Position numbers and translations under genes: made by a program. 16,450 nucleotides of DNA, taken from the IMG/VR virus record IMGVR_UViG_2537561618_000007; one strand, written 5' to 3'. The stretch comes from a virus (lineage: Duplodnaviria > Heunggongvirae > Uroviricota > Caudoviricetes). Below are positions 9,373 through 16,249 of the stretch, one piece after another (positions within the stretch are counted from its first letter, which is position 1; every line of letters starts with the position of its first letter). The notes beneath the pieces were generated by a model. It saw nothing but the letters and a program-made list of their open reading frames with translations. It ran no database searches and had not been told where the DNA came from.

Positions 9373-9449
9373 GGCCCTTTAGCTCAGTTGGTCAGAGCGA
9401 GCGACTCATAATCGCCAGGTCGCTGGTTCAAGTCCAGCAAGGGCCACCA
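9373..9449 (+). tRNA. tRNA with CAT anticodon, ileX-like (tRNA-Ile2; Met not excluded)
   Basis: Acceptor stem GGCCCTT/AAGGGCC, anticodon loop CTCATAA, T-loop GGTTCAAGTCC, 3' CCA. Resembles recalled E. coli ileX. Confidence 0.75.
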
Positions 9450-9450
9450 A

Positions 9451-9527
9451 CCACCACTAGCTCATCCGGATAGAGCATCAACCTTCTAAGTTGACGGTGC
9501 GAGGTTCGAGTCCTCGGTGGTGGGCCA
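9451..9527 (+). tRNA. tRNA-Arg (anticodon TCT, reads AGA)
   Basis: Acceptor CCACCAC/GTGGTGG, D-arm GCTCATCCGGATAGAGC, anticodon loop CTTCTAA, T-arm CGAGGTTCGAGTCCTCG, 3' GCCA. Confidence 0.75.
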
Positions 9528-9529
9528 GC

Positions 9530-9605
<76 letters not shown>

Positions 9606-9608
9606 TAT

Positions 9609-9683
<75 letters not shown>

Positions 9684-9975: not shown

Positions 9976-10191
9976 ATGAAATCCATGGACAAAATTTCAA
10001 CGGGCATTGCCTACGGCACCTCCGCCGGCAGTGCCGGCTACTGGTTTTTGCAGTGGTTGGATCAGGTCAGGCCATCACAGTGGGCTGCGATTGGTGTGCT
10101 GGGAAGTCTGCTTCTGGGGCTTCTGACTTATCTGACGAATCTGTATTTCAAAATAAGAGAAGACAAGCGTAAGGCTGCACGGGGAGAGTAA
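9976..10191 (+). CDS. Holin (EssD-like)
   Basis: 71 aa [31 protein letters not shown]...[30 protein letters not shown] with two hydrophobic segments and a charged C-terminus. First gene of the lysis cassette. Confidence 0.7.
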
Positions 10192-10194
10192 ATA

Positions 10195-10824
10195 ATGAAG
10201 CATGAAGAAATGAATCAGCGATTCAATCACCTGGAAAATGAAATCACTGAGCTTAATAAAAAATTGTCGGCGTTGGTGAGTTCTGAAGATGAAAACAAAC
10301 GCCGCGATGAGCATTATGCGGCGATTTACGATTACTGCCACAAAGTCGCTCACGAGACTTTTATGAAGTTTTTGCAGGAAAAGTTTTTACCGGCCGCATT
10401 GTCAGAAAAAGAGGCGGCTTACCTGCGGCCTGAGTACGTCATTACGGTTAACGGTGCCGGAGAGGAAGAGCATAAAAGTGATTTTATTGCGTCTGCACCG
10501 GATAAAGACCAGGAACCCCATCGGCCTTTCAGGGTTTCCTGTGAAGAGGGTGAGTTCGTCGTTTATGAGAACGGAAAACCTGTCCGGGCATCGCATCATC
10601 ACTGCCTGAAAATTATTAATCTCGCTATCAGATGCCTGAAAGACGAAAACACCAGAGTTATGAAACGCATTGGCCGTTGCATGGGGTATTTGCAGGTGGC
10701 GGCAGAGATTGAAGCACTTGCCAGTGGTGCAGACATGGATGCTGCGGTGCGGGAGGCTCTTCTTCGTGATTTCAATACTCCCCCTTTAAGAAAGAGCCTG
10801 ATGACTGGATCCAGCCGGGGCTGA
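10195..10824 (+). CDS. Uncharacterised 209-aa soluble protein inserted between holin and endolysin
   Basis: ATG 4 nt after the holin stop with RBS GGGGAGAG at 10181..10188. No signal peptide or membrane helix. Coiled-coil-like N-terminus and a Cys/His-rich segment HHHCLKIINLAIRCLK...RIGRCMGY. Family not recognised. Confidence 0.6.
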   Translation: MKHEEMNQRFNHLENEITELNKKLSALVSSEDENKRRDEHYAAIYDYCHKVAHETFMKFLQEKFLPAALSEKEAAYLRPEYVITVNGAGEEEHKSDFIASAPDKDQEPHRPFRVSCEEGEFVVYENGKPVRASHHHCLKIINLAIRCLKDENTRVMKRIGRCMGYLQVAAEIEALASGADMDAAVREALLRDFNTPPLRKSLMTGSSRG

Positions 10825-10889
10825 CTTATCTTAAAAGGCGTATATAAGTTGGCTCGTTATTTGTTGCCGATAAATCCTGATAAATATCC

Positions 10890-11423
10890 ATGAGCGCAAA
10901 AATCAAATACGGCCTGTCGGCTGCTGTTCTGGCGCTGATTGCCGCAGGCGCGTCTGCTCCCCAGATACTTGACCAGTTTCTGAACGAAAAAGAGGGTAAT
11001 CACACAACGGCATACCGTGATGGTTCTGGCATATGGACCATCTGTCGTGGTGCCACAATGGTGGATGGTAAGCCTGTCATACCGGGAATGAAGCTGTCGA
11101 AGGAAAAATGTGACCAGGTTAACGCTATTGAACGTGATAAGGCGCTGGCATGGGTGGAGCGCAATATTAAAGTACCTCTGACCGAACCCCAGAAAGCGGG
11201 TATAGCGTCATTTTGCCCCTATAACATTGGCCCCGGTAAGTGTTTCCCGTCGACGTTTTATAAGCGGCTGAATGCCGGTGATCGTAAGGGCGCATGCGAG
11301 GCGATTCGCTGGTGGATAAAAGATGTTGGGCGCGATTGCCGCATACGTTCAAATAACTGCTATGGACAGGTTATTCGTCGTGACCAGGAAAGCGCATTAG
11401 CCTGTTGGGGGATAGATCAATGA
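10890..11423 (+). CDS. SAR-type endolysin (T4-lysozyme-like glycoside hydrolase)
   Basis: N-terminal weakly hydrophobic Gly/Ala-rich segment (signal-anchor-release type) and catalytic E-x8-D-x5-T triad ([18 protein letters not shown]). Stop overlaps the Rz start. Confidence 0.8.
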
Positions 11424-11887
11424 GCAGAGTCACCGCGATTATCTCCGCTCTGGTTATCTGCATCATCGTCTGCCTGTCATGGGCTGTTAATCATTACCGT
11501 GATAACGCCATTACCTACAAAGAGCAGCGCGACAAAAACGCCGGAGAACTGAAGCTGGCGAACGCAACCATTACTGACATGCAGCAGCGCCAGCGTGATG
11601 CTGATGCACTCGATGCTAAATACACGAAGGAGTTAGCTGATGCGAAAGCTGAAAATGATGCTCTTCGGCGCAAGCTTGATAATGGTGGTCGGGTGCTCGT
11701 CAAAGGAAAATGCCCTGTGCCATCCTCAGCCGAAACCTCCAGCGCCTCCGGCATGGGCAATGATGCCACCGTCGAACTCTCTCCAGTTGCTGGACGAAAC
11801 GTTCTCGGTATCCGGGACGGAATCATCAGCGACCAGACAGCATTGAGAATGCTTCAGGAGTACATCAGGACTCAGTGCCTGAAATAA
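11420..11887 (+). CDS. rz: Rz (i-spanin)
   Basis: N-terminal membrane anchor [21 protein letters not shown], coiled-coil periplasmic domain, Rz1 embedded in the +1 frame. Confidence 0.75.
11640..11846 (+). CDS. rz1: Rz1 (o-spanin lipoprotein) embedded in Rz
   Basis: Lipoprotein signal ending in lipobox VVGC followed by a proline-rich mature region ([16 protein letters not shown]), entirely within Rz in another frame. Confidence 0.65.
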
Positions 11888-12089: not shown

Positions 12090-12269
12090 ATGAACAAATC
12101 ATTAACCGTTCTTCCTTCTGGCGAATACCCGACCATGAGCAGTCTTGAGATGGTGGATTACATTAATGCTGATCGGAAATCCAAAGCGGAGGCGGAGGGG
12201 CTTGCGTTCCCCTGTAAGAAATATCGCAAACTCGAACACCGCAGTTTCATGAAGAAAGTACCCAGGGTC
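12090..12269 (+). pseudogene. 5' fragment of a second Rha/antirepressor-like gene truncated by IS600
   Basis: MNKSLTVLPSGEYPTMSSLEMVDYINADRKSKAEAEGLAFPCKKYRKLEHRSFMKKVP fits the Rha N-terminal pattern. Frame runs into the IS600 terminal repeat at 12270. Confidence 0.5.
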
Positions 12270-12312
12270 TGAGGTGTACTGGCAATAGCGGACACTACCA
12301 TTTGTTCTTTTT

Positions 12313-13104
12313 TTAAGCAGCCATCTGATGATATTTTTCCCTGAAGGCTGCCGGGGAGATATTCCCCAGACGAGAGTGACGACGCTGACGATTGTAGAAA
12401 ATCTCAATGTATTCCCGTATTACTGAGATGGCTTCATCCCGGTTATTAAAACGATAGTGGCTCAGGCTCTCATTTTTCAGCGTTCCCCAGAAGCTTTCCA
12501 TCGGAGCGTTGTCGTAACAGTTACCTTTACGCGACATTGATGTTTTCAGACCAGACTGCTCCTGTATGACCCGGTAATCGTATGCGCAGTACTGTGAACC
12601 TCGATCAGAGTGGTGGATTAGCCCGGCAGGTGGGCGCTGGCTCCTGAGCGCCATAAACAGGGCTTTACCTGTCAGCTCTTTTGTCATGCGCTCTCCCATG
12701 GCGTAGCCGACAATTTCGCACGTATAAACATCTTTGATGCCAGCAACATACGTCAGGTCCGCCACCCAGACCTGATTTGGTGCTGTAGGAGCGAACGTCT
12801 GGTTCAGCAGATTTGGCGCAACTGGCAGATTGTGGTTCGGGTTCGTAGTCGCTCTGAACTTGCGTTTCTGCTTACAGCGTAGCCTCAGCTCCTTACGAAG
12901 ACGTGCCAGTCGGTCACGACCAACGATGATGCCATTCTCTGCCAGCTCCGTCTGGAGCCGCCGGGTTCCATATGTTTCGCGAGTGCGGATATGTGCCACC
13001 TTAATCTCCAGTTTTAGCCGCTCATCACTTTGTTTTCTGTCTGAGGGTTCATGCTGTACCCAGTTGTAATAACCGCTCCTGGATACACCAAATACCTGAC
13101 ACAT
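12313..13104 (-). CDS. IS600 OrfB (DDE transposase domain)
   Basis: 263-aa ORF-track product, identical to the product of 14856..15647 on the opposite strand. Carries the typical HSD...YDN...E pattern. Confidence 0.85.
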   Translation of the reverse strand: MCQVFGVSRSGYYNWVQHEPSDRKQSDERLKLEIKVAHIRTRETYGTRRLQTELAENGIIVGRDRLARLRKELRLRCKQKRKFRATTNPNHNLPVAPNLLNQTFAPTAPNQVWVADLTYVAGIKDVYTCEIVGYAMGERMTKELTGKALFMALRSQRPPAGLIHHSDRGSQYCAYDYRVIQEQSGLKTSMSRKGNCYDNAPMESFWGTLKNESLSHYRFNNRDEAISVIREYIEIFYNRQRRHSRLGNISPAAFREKYHQMAA

Positions 13105-13139
13105 CGCTTCAATGGGAAATTGTTGTCGCCATTGTTCGA

Positions 13140-13319
13140 TTAACGCGTATTTTTCAGCGACTCCTGTGCAAAATACGCTGTTGATTTTTTTAATATATCG
13201 CGCTCAAGGCGAGCTTCATTTAACGCCTTACGCAGTTGCAGAATTTCAGATTCCAGTTCAGCCACCGTGCGGGAACCAGGAGTACCGAGCCCTTTTCTGG
13301 CGGCGGTAACCCATTGTCC
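13140..13319 (-). pseudogene. IS600 OrfA, 5'-truncated
   Basis: Encodes ...GQWVTAARKGLGTPGSRTVAELESEILQLRKALNEARLERDILKKSTAYFAQESLKNTR and lacks the N-terminal ~40 codons present in the copy at 1..226. Confidence 0.75.
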
Positions 13320-13370
13320 TGAAGGCACTGAACCGCCCCGGGTTTCCTGGAGAGTGTTTTATCTGTGAAC

Positions 13371-14252
<882 letters not shown>

Positions 14253-14261
<9 letters not shown>

Positions 14262-14579
14262 CCAGAGGCGGTCGAACTCCGCCTTCGCAAAATAAGCGGA
14301 AGCCTGGCGAAGGATATCGTTACTGCGGCGCAGTTCACGATTTTCACGCTCCGGCTCTTTCAGACGCTGACGTTCAGCGGTGGTGAGCCCTCCATCACCG
14401 CCCCCGGTATCCCGCTCATGCTGGCGACCCCAGACACGCAGAGTCTCCGGCGTACAGCCAATCTTTGGAGCAATGGAACAAATTGTCGCCCATTGTGAGT
14501 CATATTCGCCCTGACTTTCCAGAACCATACGGACTGCCCGTTGACGGACTTCGGGGGAAAAACGAGTATTTTTAGTCAT
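14253..14579 (-). CDS. IS629 OrfA
   Basis: 108 aa [50 protein letters not shown]...[20 protein letters not shown] matches recalled IS629/IS1203 OrfA. Confidence 0.85.
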
Positions 14580-14634
14580 CCTGTTTACCTCTTTCTCAGG
14601 AAGTTTAGTCTCCAGGATTCCCGGGGCGGTTCAC

Positions 14635-14820
14635 ACTTTAGGACAATGGGTTACCGCCGCCAGAAAAGGGCTCGGTACTCCTGGTTCCCGCACGGTGGCT
14701 GAACTGGAATCTGAAATTCTGCAACTGCGTAAGGCGTTAAATGAAGCTCGCCTTGAGCGAGATATATTAAAAAAAGCAACAGCGTATTTTGCACAGGAGT
14801 CGCTGAAAAATACGCGTTAA
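14635..14820 (+). pseudogene. IS600 OrfA, 5'-truncated
   Basis: Encodes TLGQWVTAARKGLGTPGSRTVAELESEILQLRKALNEARLERDILKKATAYFAQESLKNTR, stop at 14818..14820. Contains the A7 slippery run at 14769..14775. Confidence 0.75.
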
Positions 14821-14855
14821 TCGAACAATGGCGACAACAATTTCCCATTGAAGCG

Positions 14856-15647
14856 ATGTGTCAGGTATTTGGTGTATCCAGGAGCGGTTATTACAACTGG
14901 GTACAGCATGAACCCTCAGACAGAAAACAAAGTGATGAGCGGCTAAAACTGGAGATTAAGGTGGCACATATCCGCACTCGCGAAACATATGGAACCCGGC
15001 GGCTCCAGACGGAGCTGGCAGAGAATGGCATCATCGTTGGTCGTGACCGACTGGCACGTCTTCGTAAGGAGCTGAGGCTACGCTGTAAGCAGAAACGCAA
15101 GTTCAGAGCGACTACGAACCCGAACCACAATCTGCCAGTTGCGCCAAATCTGCTGAACCAGACGTTCGCTCCTACAGCACCAAATCAGGTCTGGGTGGCG
15201 GACCTGACGTATGTTGCTGGCATCAAAGATGTTTATACGTGCGAAATTGTCGGCTACGCCATGGGAGAGCGCATGACAAAAGAGCTGACAGGTAAAGCCC
15301 TGTTTATGGCGCTCAGGAGCCAGCGCCCACCTGCCGGGCTAATCCACCACTCTGATCGAGGTTCACAGTACTGCGCATACGATTACCGGGTCATACAGGA
15401 GCAGTCTGGTCTGAAAACATCAATGTCGCGTAAAGGTAACTGTTACGACAACGCTCCGATGGAAAGCTTCTGGGGAACGCTGAAAAATGAGAGCCTGAGC
15501 CACTATCGTTTTAATAACCGGGATGAAGCCATCTCAGTAATACGGGAATACATTGAGATTTTCTACAATCGTCAGCGTCGTCACTCTCGTCTGGGGAATA
15601 TCTCCCCGGCAGCCTTCAGGGAAAAATATCATCAGATGGCTGCTTAA
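14856..15647 (+). CDS. IS600 OrfB (DDE transposase domain)
   Basis: 263-aa product identical to that of 12313..13104. Confidence 0.85.
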   Translation: MCQVFGVSRSGYYNWVQHEPSDRKQSDERLKLEIKVAHIRTRETYGTRRLQTELAENGIIVGRDRLARLRKELRLRCKQKRKFRATTNPNHNLPVAPNLLNQTFAPTAPNQVWVADLTYVAGIKDVYTCEIVGYAMGERMTKELTGKALFMALRSQRPPAGLIHHSDRGSQYCAYDYRVIQEQSGLKTSMSRKGNCYDNAPMESFWGTLKNESLSHYRFNNRDEAISVIREYIEIFYNRQRRHSRLGNISPAAFREKYHQMAA

Positions 15648-15690
15648 AAAAAGAACAAATGGTAGTGTCCGCTATTGCCAGTACACCTCA

Positions 15691-16249
15691 GTATGTGGAG
15701 CAAGCGAAAGATAATTCTTTGCAACCTTCCCAAACGGTAACGGACTCTCTCAAGGTAGCGGACTTATCCACCATTATTCAGGAACAACCCTCTTTCGTAG
15801 CAGAAACCCGTGCGGCTGACAAAAATACAGATGCTGTTTTACCTTGGCTGGCGAAAGATATTGCTGTCGTTTTTCCGCCCGAAGTTGTACACACCACGTT
15901 AAGTCATCGCCGCTTTCCCGGAGTTCCTGTTCAGCAAGCAGACAAATTGACCCAATTACGTCGCTTAGCCTGTAGCGTGTCGCAACGGGATAATAAAACA
16001 GCCACATTTGACTTCAGCACCTGTTCTTTAGAATGGCAAAACACCGTCGCCCAAGCGATCAGTCAGATCGACGGCCTGAAAACAACACAGCTACCATCAC
16101 CAGTAATGGCTGTACTCACGGCACTTGAAATGAAATGCACAAGATATAAAGTGCGTGAGGATGTTATGGATCAGATCGTCCAGGAAGGCAGTCTGGAATA
16201 TGCTACTGATGTAATAATACACCTTCAACAGATTGATATTAAATGGGAT
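15691..16249 (+). pseudogene. Internal fragment of an unknown gene, truncated at the 5' end by IS600 and at the 3' end by IS1
   Basis: One frame is open across the whole 559-bp interval. The ORF-track ORF (15659..16276) starts inside IS600 and stops inside the IS1 terminal repeat. Product not recognised. Confidence 0.45.

Follow-up and report, generated by a model that had tools for sequence, protein, structure and literature searches.

The viral DNA stretch analysed here (IMG/VR record IMGVR_UViG_2537561618_000007; 16,450 nucleotides, hereafter the window) carries, between its holin and endolysin genes, an open reading frame (ORF) of 209 amino acids, which runs from an ATG to a TGA at positions 10195-10824 on the + strand. 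An initial annotation, made from the sequence, had described it as an uncharacterised gene whose family it did not recognise. Our analysis indicates that the gene is probably an ordinary one, an accessory gene of the YdfR type and not a new lysis component, and that the copy in the window is likely a hypomorphic or dead remnant in a decaying prophage. Its identity and architecture can be given with high confidence: the product is a stand-alone member of PHROG 1085, a phage family of unknown function, which corresponds to the C-terminal module of long YdfR-family proteins, lacks the DUF1327 domain and is frameshifted at its 3' end.

The family assignment was obtained from profile searches, in which the window protein matched PHROG 1085 with E=9.9e-74 (249 bits) and its residues 1-209 aligned to positions 117-288 of the 296 in the profile. 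The protein thus belongs to an already catalogued family, from whose profile it differs by the lack of the N-terminal domain and of the last ~8 positions, which were lost to the frameshift. All homologs found in a collection of 5.8 billion proteins came from Escherichia coli and Shigella, and many of them were proteins of 268-333 amino acids named 'YdfR family / DUF1327 domain-containing protein', with PF07041 at the N-terminus. These long members contain the sequence of the window protein, with up to 81% identity, and in the alignment the window protein begins after their DUF1327 and linker columns and covers the C-terminal two-thirds. Searching the window protein against Pfam with hmmscan revealed no PF07041 (DUF1327) at E<=0.1, and since this defining domain is absent, the protein is best placed, from its sequence, in PHROG 1085 and the C-terminal-module group and not in PF07041. 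Beyond weak coiled-coil noise, it had no match in Pfam, NCBIfam or PADLOC; searches of PDB sequences with the single sequence and with a 53-sequence profile returned nothing below E=0.05; and an exhaustive hidden Markov model (HMM) search of 1.84 billion representatives gave 40 hits, all from the same family or fragments of it, with no link to any other family. The profile and structure searches suggested in the initial annotation therefore led to a family, itself uncharacterised, and to no match of known function: the protein is no orphan, and its description as functionally uncharacterised stands, as no relative of known function was found by sequence or by fold.

A second, word-indexed search recovered divergent homologs among the 'hypothetical proteins' of Salmonella enterica (250-320 amino acids), whose three-part layout comprises an N-terminal domain resembling DUF1327, then a short coiled coil and, at the C-terminus, a conserved core. 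E. coli and Salmonella proteins share conserved motifs in spite of an identity of 30-35%, and the presence of the same layout in both indicates that the N-terminal domain, the coiled coil and the core make up the ancestral architecture, of which the stand-alone core forms of 185-217 amino acids are a recurrent derivative. The window protein carries the core signature of the family (K-R-[IL]-G-R-x-M-G-[YL]-L-Q-x-A-A-E-I-E-A) as KRIGRCMGYLQVAAEIEA, together with H136, and the columns of this signature and His136 were invariant or near-invariant in three family alignments. The window gene resembles ydfR of the E. coli K-12 Qin prophage (PF07041) in occupying the slot that separates an S21/essQ-type holin from an rrrQ-type lysozyme, as well as in its left junction, with a start a few nucleotides past the holin stop. 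However, K-12 YdfR (103 amino acids) consists of DUF1327 only and has none of the module found in the window protein.

Selection on the coding sequence was estimated from the ratio of nonsynonymous to synonymous substitution rates (dN/dS), calculated as pairwise Nei-Gojobori medians over 41 unique alleles and hundreds of pairs. The medians were 0.33 for the coiled coil, 0.55 for the linker, 0.33 for the core, 0.24 for the C-terminal tail and 0.31 for DUF1327, with the tail showing the strongest purifying selection of all regions; we consider this moderate purifying selection, within the range expected of an accessory phage gene. Because dN/dS lies at 0.24-0.55 in every region and PHROG 1085 is matched at E=1e-73, the 209-amino-acid ORF is a real coding gene and not a chance frame. 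The ORFs found on the opposite strand within 10195-10824 (92, 66 and 58 amino acids) were treated as shadows of the coding frame.

The window copy bears two lesions. The first is the complete absence of the DUF1327 domain, and the second is a deletion of one nucleotide near the 3' end, which shifts the reading frame. The deletion site is a run of five cytosines at 10780-10784 (+), where intact alleles have CCCCCC or CCGCCC; in the DNA alignment the window reads ACTCC-CCCTTT against ACTCCCCCCTTT in L086 and ACTCCGCCCTTT in L002, and from this point to the start of the endolysin the DNA is 100% identical to that of the intact L086. The deletion is what gave the ORF its TGA and its final 12 codons. 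The product ends in ...PPLRKSLMTGSSRG and terminates in LRKSLMTGSSRG instead of the family tail PPFKKxPxxW[IL]xPGxxYLKxR[IL], the most highly conserved of the family's motifs, with W, P-G and Y residues that are near-invariant from E. coli to Salmonella. Three-frame translation located what is left of the ancestral 3' end at 10785-10847 (+), in the -1 frame, where it encodes FKKEPDDWIQPGLTYLKRRI followed by a stop codon and is not part of the ORF product. According to the initial annotation, disruption of the ORF in close relatives would have spoken against the gene; the close relatives P0002 and P0004 are intact, and the disrupted copy is that of the window itself. The frameshifted allele is also present in the complete-looking prophage L001, so that the lesion predates the decay seen in the window. 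Altogether, impairment of the window allele appears probable.

At least 1000 contigs carry the exact 209-amino-acid sequence, recorded as 'MULTISPECIES: hypothetical protein [Shigella]'. In a set of 5426 complete E. coli genomes, some match to the gene was present in 92, a full-length one in 18 and one of at least 99% identity in 7. Complete Shigella and E. coli genomes hold the gene in prophage copies at different stages of decay, including one with the endolysin deleted (L169), one with replication genes replaced by insertion sequence (IS) elements (L172) and one with the same layout as the window (L171). In two other copies (L174, 1766-2461; L175, 1736-2431) the Rz ORF is extended to 231 amino acids, matches the PBP5_C domain and is directly followed by chromosomal genes, an arrangement suggesting that the end of the prophage was joined to a host gene by a deletion. 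The window is 98.5% identical to L001, the apparently complete prophage of E. coli CFSAN029787, from position 4005 to the Rz stop at 11887, and IS3-family transposase genes lie beyond this position; since homology ends precisely at this stop codon, the prophage is cut off behind its lysis cassette. Two inverted copies of a 1085-bp IS3-family element, 99.2% identical to each other (12269-13353 and 14609-15691), flank a further IS3-type transposase pair on the - strand (13371-14579), and part of that same IS recurs at positions 1-110 of the window. Such an IS nest, together with the truncation, is typical of Shigella genomes.

The position of the gene was compared across 80 IMG/VR loci encoding S21-type holins, 74 of which also contain the endolysin. 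The slot between the two genes was empty in 27/74 loci, where the endolysin ATG overlaps the holin stop (TAATG), and held a DUF1327 (YdfR-family) gene starting a few nucleotides past the holin stop in 47/74. The filled slots had discrete lengths from 312 to 1085 bp and encoded proteins of 103-243 amino acids. The initial annotation had implied that a gene wedged into this tight cassette was an anomaly, and it is in fact the majority state of S21-type cassettes; the synteny survey that it had proposed confirmed the position of the slot gene and showed it to be a common occupant, missing from the 27 empty cassettes. A further group of loci was retrieved by means of the core motif; in all of its E. 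coli members the gene begins 0-4 nt past the holin stop, and the distance from the end of the gene to the endolysin is 36-65 nt or, because a convergent ORF of about 90-126 amino acids intervenes, about 450 nt. The left junction seen in the window recurs in 47 DUF1327-only and 60 DUF1327+core cassettes. One long relative, P0004 (333 amino acids, 81% identical), is encoded between PF04971 and PF00959 genes, 4 nt past the holin and 42 nt before the lysozyme, and the slot occupants range from 103-amino-acid DUF1327-only proteins up to forms of 333 amino acids.

In the window, 3 nt separate the holin TAA (10189-10191) from the ATG of the ORF (10195), and the Shine-Dalgarno (SD) sequence of the ORF, GGGGAGAG (10181-10188, +), lies within the final holin codons (RGE). 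Comparison of the junctions of 144 cassettes revealed that an equivalent SD (GAGAGGTGAA-TAATG) serves the endolysin in the empty cassettes, and that in the filled ones the slot gene uses the holin-embedded SD and the endolysin is SD-less. The empty-slot junction, GAGAGGTGAATAATG, has the endolysin ATG overlapping the holin stop, an overlap that suggests translational coupling of the endolysin to the holin. The endolysin leader of the window (10825-10889, +) is 65 nt long and AU-rich, and inspection of its sequence revealed no SD before the endolysin ATG at 10890; its 3' part, CCTGATAAATATCC-ATG, is kept in most of the filled cassettes, and the rest have a different SD-less leader. In most filled cassettes the endolysin also has a different (rrrQ-like) N-terminus. 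The coordinates of the ORF, its ribosome-binding site, its start just past the holin stop and the 65-bp gap lacking an SD are all present exactly as the initial annotation described them. Besides, a filled or empty slot makes no difference to the holin sequences, the cytoplasmic tail KAARGE included, which thus show no co-variation with its content.

The homolog of Salmonella (L083-L085; 4001-4789 and neighbours) is located upstream of an unrelated holin, Phage_holin_2_3 (PF16080), and downstream of Q and a HicAB toxin-antitoxin, and it is followed by a convergent ORF of 105 amino acids. In view of this placement, the family is not strictly tied to the S-R gap; it is linked to the start of the late operon or cargo region, and not to one particular holin. 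Convergent ORFs of about 90-126 amino acids, without a Pfam match, follow many YdfR-family genes (L002 5777-6091, L083 4809-5126, L030 4220-4486, L013 4187-4468 and L018 4031-4303, all on the - strand). Those of L002 (E. coli) and L083 (Salmonella) are 52% identical, which indicates that a two-gene unit formed by the YdfR-family gene and the convergent ORF is conserved across genera. The window has no such convergent partner, its ORF and endolysin being only 65 nt apart.

Structure prediction with AlphaFold2 (AF2) was unusable when based on an E. coli-only alignment (mean predicted local distance difference test, pLDDT, of 50) and was rerun on the intact 217-amino-acid relative P0002 with 53 sequences including Salmonella, giving a predicted template modelling score (pTM) of 0.42. 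Residues 1-64 (10195-10386, +) are predicted to form an antiparallel helical hairpin or coiled coil, with helices at 3-26 and 31-64 (pLDDT about 60-77), in agreement with the charged, coiled-coil-like N-terminus described initially. Residues 65-108 (10387-10518, +) make up a variable linker, rich in alignment indels, with pLDDT <50 and the highest dN/dS (0.55). They are followed by the conserved core at residues 109-196 (10519-10782, +), recognised by its invariant columns and a dN/dS of 0.33, with the signature K-R-[IL]-G-R-[CSA]-M-G-[YL]-L-Q-x-A-A-E-I-E-A and the near-invariant His136. In the AF2 model the core (residues 110-195) is predicted as a three-stranded beta-meander followed by three helices (pLDDT 68-82), and the linker and the tail have low pLDDT also with the 53-sequence alignment. 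Foldseek searches with the predicted model returned nothing at E<=0.001 against the PDB or against BFVD, and inspection by eye found no HEPN-like Rx4-6H motif. As the initial annotation had stated, the product has no membrane segment, its highest 19-residue Kyte-Doolittle mean being 0.76.

A metal site formed by a Cys/His-rich segment had also been suggested. The residues are present in the window protein (H134-H136, C137, C147 and C162) but they are not conserved: E. coli sequences have S or E in place of C137 and Y, R or H in place of C147, C162 (GRCMG) is C, S or A in the wider family, and H134 varies, leaving His136 as the only near-invariant residue among them in the E. coli and Salmonella alignments. 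The metal site was rejected since no set of >=3-4 ligands is conserved across homologs.

Regarding the neighbouring genes, the ORF is preceded by a gene for an S21-type (P21-type) class II holin of the pinholin type (9976-10191, +; 71 amino acids), with the dual-start motif MKSMDK, which matched PF04971 (E=5.5e-35) and PHROG holin families and is annotated as 'class II holin family protein' in L001. It is followed by the gene for a 177-amino-acid endolysin of the rrrQ type (10890-11423, +; PF00959, E=5e-24; annotated as lysozyme / rrrQ), whose N-terminal hydrophobic stretch we take, from its sequence and general knowledge, to be a signal-anchor-release (SAR)-like segment. The two Pfam matches agree with the neighbours named in the initial annotation. 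An Rz-type i-spanin comes next (11420-11887, +; PF03245, E=5e-30; 'lysis protein' in the annotation of L001), and a 68-amino-acid ORF embedded in Rz in the +1 frame (11640-11846, +) probably encodes the Rz1 o-spanin, with an N-terminus resembling a signal peptide, a lipobox-like VVGC and a body rich in Pro. With this Rz1 candidate inside Rz, the lysis cassette would be complete (S, R, Rz, Rz1). Upstream of the holin, the Q antiterminator gene (8757-9173; PF06530) is followed by four tRNA genes detected with ARAGORN (9373-9683). The first of these is tRNA-Met (CAT) by ARAGORN and tRNA-Ile in the RefSeq record of a near-identical prophage, and the remaining ones are Arg(TCT), Thr(TGT) and Gly(TCC). 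The presence of Q and the tRNA genes upstream places the 209-amino-acid gene, which is co-oriented with the lysis genes, in the late operon of a lambdoid prophage, between S and R, as had been proposed.

In the explanation that we favour, lambdoid prophages of E. coli, Shigella and Salmonella carry a YdfR-type accessory gene at the 5' end of the late operon, which would be expressed with the lysis proteins from the Q-antiterminated late transcript by means of the holin-embedded SD, and its product would be made late, in the cytoplasm, together with the holin. The ancestral protein consisted of DUF1327, a coiled-coil hairpin and a core ending in PPFKKxPxxWIxPGxxYLKxRI; the window copy has kept the coiled coil and the core, with the single-C deletion exchanging the conserved tail for 12 unrelated residues. 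The family may comprise cytoplasmic, probably oligomeric host-factor-binding proteins acting late in infection, in which DUF1327 would provide docking to RNase E (its catalytic half), to RNA or to both, with the C-terminal module serving as the effector or partner-binding part. The Shigella allele, having lost both the docking domain and the tail and lying in an IS-eroded prophage, would most likely be a remnant, hypomorphic or dead, maintained by clonal inheritance. The slot protein would not be a dedicated holin partner, and it is very likely that the 209-amino-acid gene is not essential for lysis.

Our literature search found no paper on such a gene between S and R, and the only relevant study of YdfR was PMC13232886. 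Two-hybrid and pull-down experiments demonstrated that YdfR residues 1-72 bind RNase E's N-terminal (catalytic) domain and YdfR co-purifies RNA, while ydfR of K-12 had almost no RNA-seq reads and was silent in normal growth (PMC13232886). The RNase E-binding residues fall in the domain that is absent from the window protein. An RNase E- or RNA-directed function of the family is put forward as a tentative lead, with low confidence. Of the three roles considered in the initial annotation, a late-expressed host-modifying factor fits best with this lead and a defence cargo gene has the least support, all three, including a lysis regulator, being candidate roles.

Several observations weigh against the explanation given above. 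E. coli commonly has forms without DUF1327 whose tail is intact (P0030, 203 contigs; P0046, 100), so that the module probably works alone and the loss of DUF1327 is not by itself evidence of decay. The rest of the 209-amino-acid ORF has no further lesions, the frameshifted allele sits in the apparently complete L001, and the window allele may retain activity without its tail. Moreover, the structure prediction is moderately confident and gave no informative fold match, and the proposed mechanism draws on context alone. Overproduction of YdfR barely changed the transcriptome (PMC13232886), and the RNase E link has been shown for K-12 YdfR only, with none to the C-terminal module.

Among the alternatives, it appears unlikely that the product is a soluble lysis-timing regulator, co-translated with the pinholin, which would bind the C-terminal tail of the holin or the SAR endolysin and delay or sharpen triggering. 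Such a role would suit a gene that lies directly after the holin stop, uses an SD embedded in the holin gene and is constantly linked to the lysis genes in E. coli, as well as a soluble product with a coiled coil suited to oligomeric binding, and a filled slot costs the endolysin its coupled start, altering the S:R expression geometry. P1 LydB and T4 RIII, soluble holin antagonists encoded beside or after the holin gene and co-expressed with it, provide a precedent, and the window product is likewise a small-to-medium cytoplasmic protein encoded next to a holin. However, the slot gene is optional, being missing from 27/74 very similar S21 cassettes, and the holins, including the tail KAARGE, do not change with its presence. 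The protein had no match to lysis-category families and no similarity to lysis-regulator families in Pfam, PHROGs or NCBIfam, a comparison that did not include the LydB and RIII sequences. Besides, the Salmonella homolog is found upstream of the unrelated PF16080 holin with a convergent gene between them, and occupants that range from 103-amino-acid DUF1327-only proteins to 333 amino acids are hard to fit to one holin-binding role.

We also give little credence to the idea that the C-terminal module (beta-meander, three helices and W-PG-Y tail) is a new autonomous late effector domain with which lambdoid phages of enterobacteria would act on a host target, namely RNase E/RNA turnover or the lysis clock, in which case the stand-alone, DUF1327-less forms would be active alone and -1 slippage at C CCU UUA could restore part of the activity of the Shigella allele.

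It is very unlikely that the gene is a cargo gene expressed in the lysogen (a moron) and conferring superinfection exclusion, anti-phage defence or a host-fitness trait. This possibility would agree with a facultative, mosaic gene with many length variants, located in the Q-to-lysis region, a known cargo site, where late-operon morons such as stx and those of the bor/lom type form facultative mosaic cargo of the Q-S-R-Rz region. The homolog of L002 shares this region with stx2AB, that of Salmonella lies between Q/HicAB and the holin, and the adjacent convergent small ORF found in many relatives would need its own promoter. Nevertheless, classic morons have their own promoter and terminator and the 209-amino-acid gene has neither: the element search found no sigma-70-like promoter on the + strand in 9976-10195 and no terminator isolating the gene, whose start is coupled to the holin stop. 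In PADLOC-DB, no family matched the window protein at E<=1, and the sole match of the long forms was a coiled-coil-type one, at 0.018 in one long form. Moreover, ydfR of K-12 is nearly silent in normal growth (PMC13232886), and the convergent partner is absent from the window.

A bypass of the frameshift, by a -1 slip at C CCU UUA (10782-10788, in the X XXY YYZ register) that would yield the tail ...NTPPLKKEPDDWIQPGLTYLKRRI and two isoforms, is highly improbable. The heptamer is in the right register and the simulated -1 product, with the predicted peptide ...NTPPLKKEPDDWIQPGLTYLK, restores the tail with only an F-to-L change, at a position where some Salmonella homologs have Leu. Against it, there is no downstream stimulatory structure (minimum free energy z = -0.2 vs shuffles) and no upstream SD-like element, and intact alleles, for which recoding would serve no purpose, share the downstream sequence exactly, so that nothing has come under selection for recoding. 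Slippage without a stimulator should not exceed the percent level, and the slippery heptamer is probably accidental. Finally, a chance ORF in S-R spacer DNA, which the lack of a Pfam or NCBIfam family and an annotation as hypothetical only might suggest, can be practically discounted, being refuted by the PHROG 1085 match (E=1e-73), the motifs shared by E. coli and Salmonella at 30-35% identity and a dN/dS well below 1 in all regions, along with a good and correctly spaced SD.

The 209-amino-acid protein is already in public databases as a hypothetical protein, and what our analysis adds is descriptive: the sequence comparisons show the C-terminal module to be a separable unit, conserved in both E. 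coli and Salmonella, the Shigella allele carries a frameshift, and the slot gene takes over the coupling site of the endolysin. None of these points would surprise phage specialists or open a long-standing question, and the window itself carries little weight, as its copy is the standard Shigella allele, with two conserved family elements missing, in a decaying prophage. The family is of modest interest, since it sits at the pinholin-SAR endolysin coupling site in most S21-type cassettes, including those of Shiga toxin (Stx) phages, is under purifying selection and has one domain recently reported to bind RNase E. Overall, the separate C-terminal module and the loss of the SD of the endolysin may offer a handle on the tuning of lysis or of host RNA in Stx-converting and related prophages.

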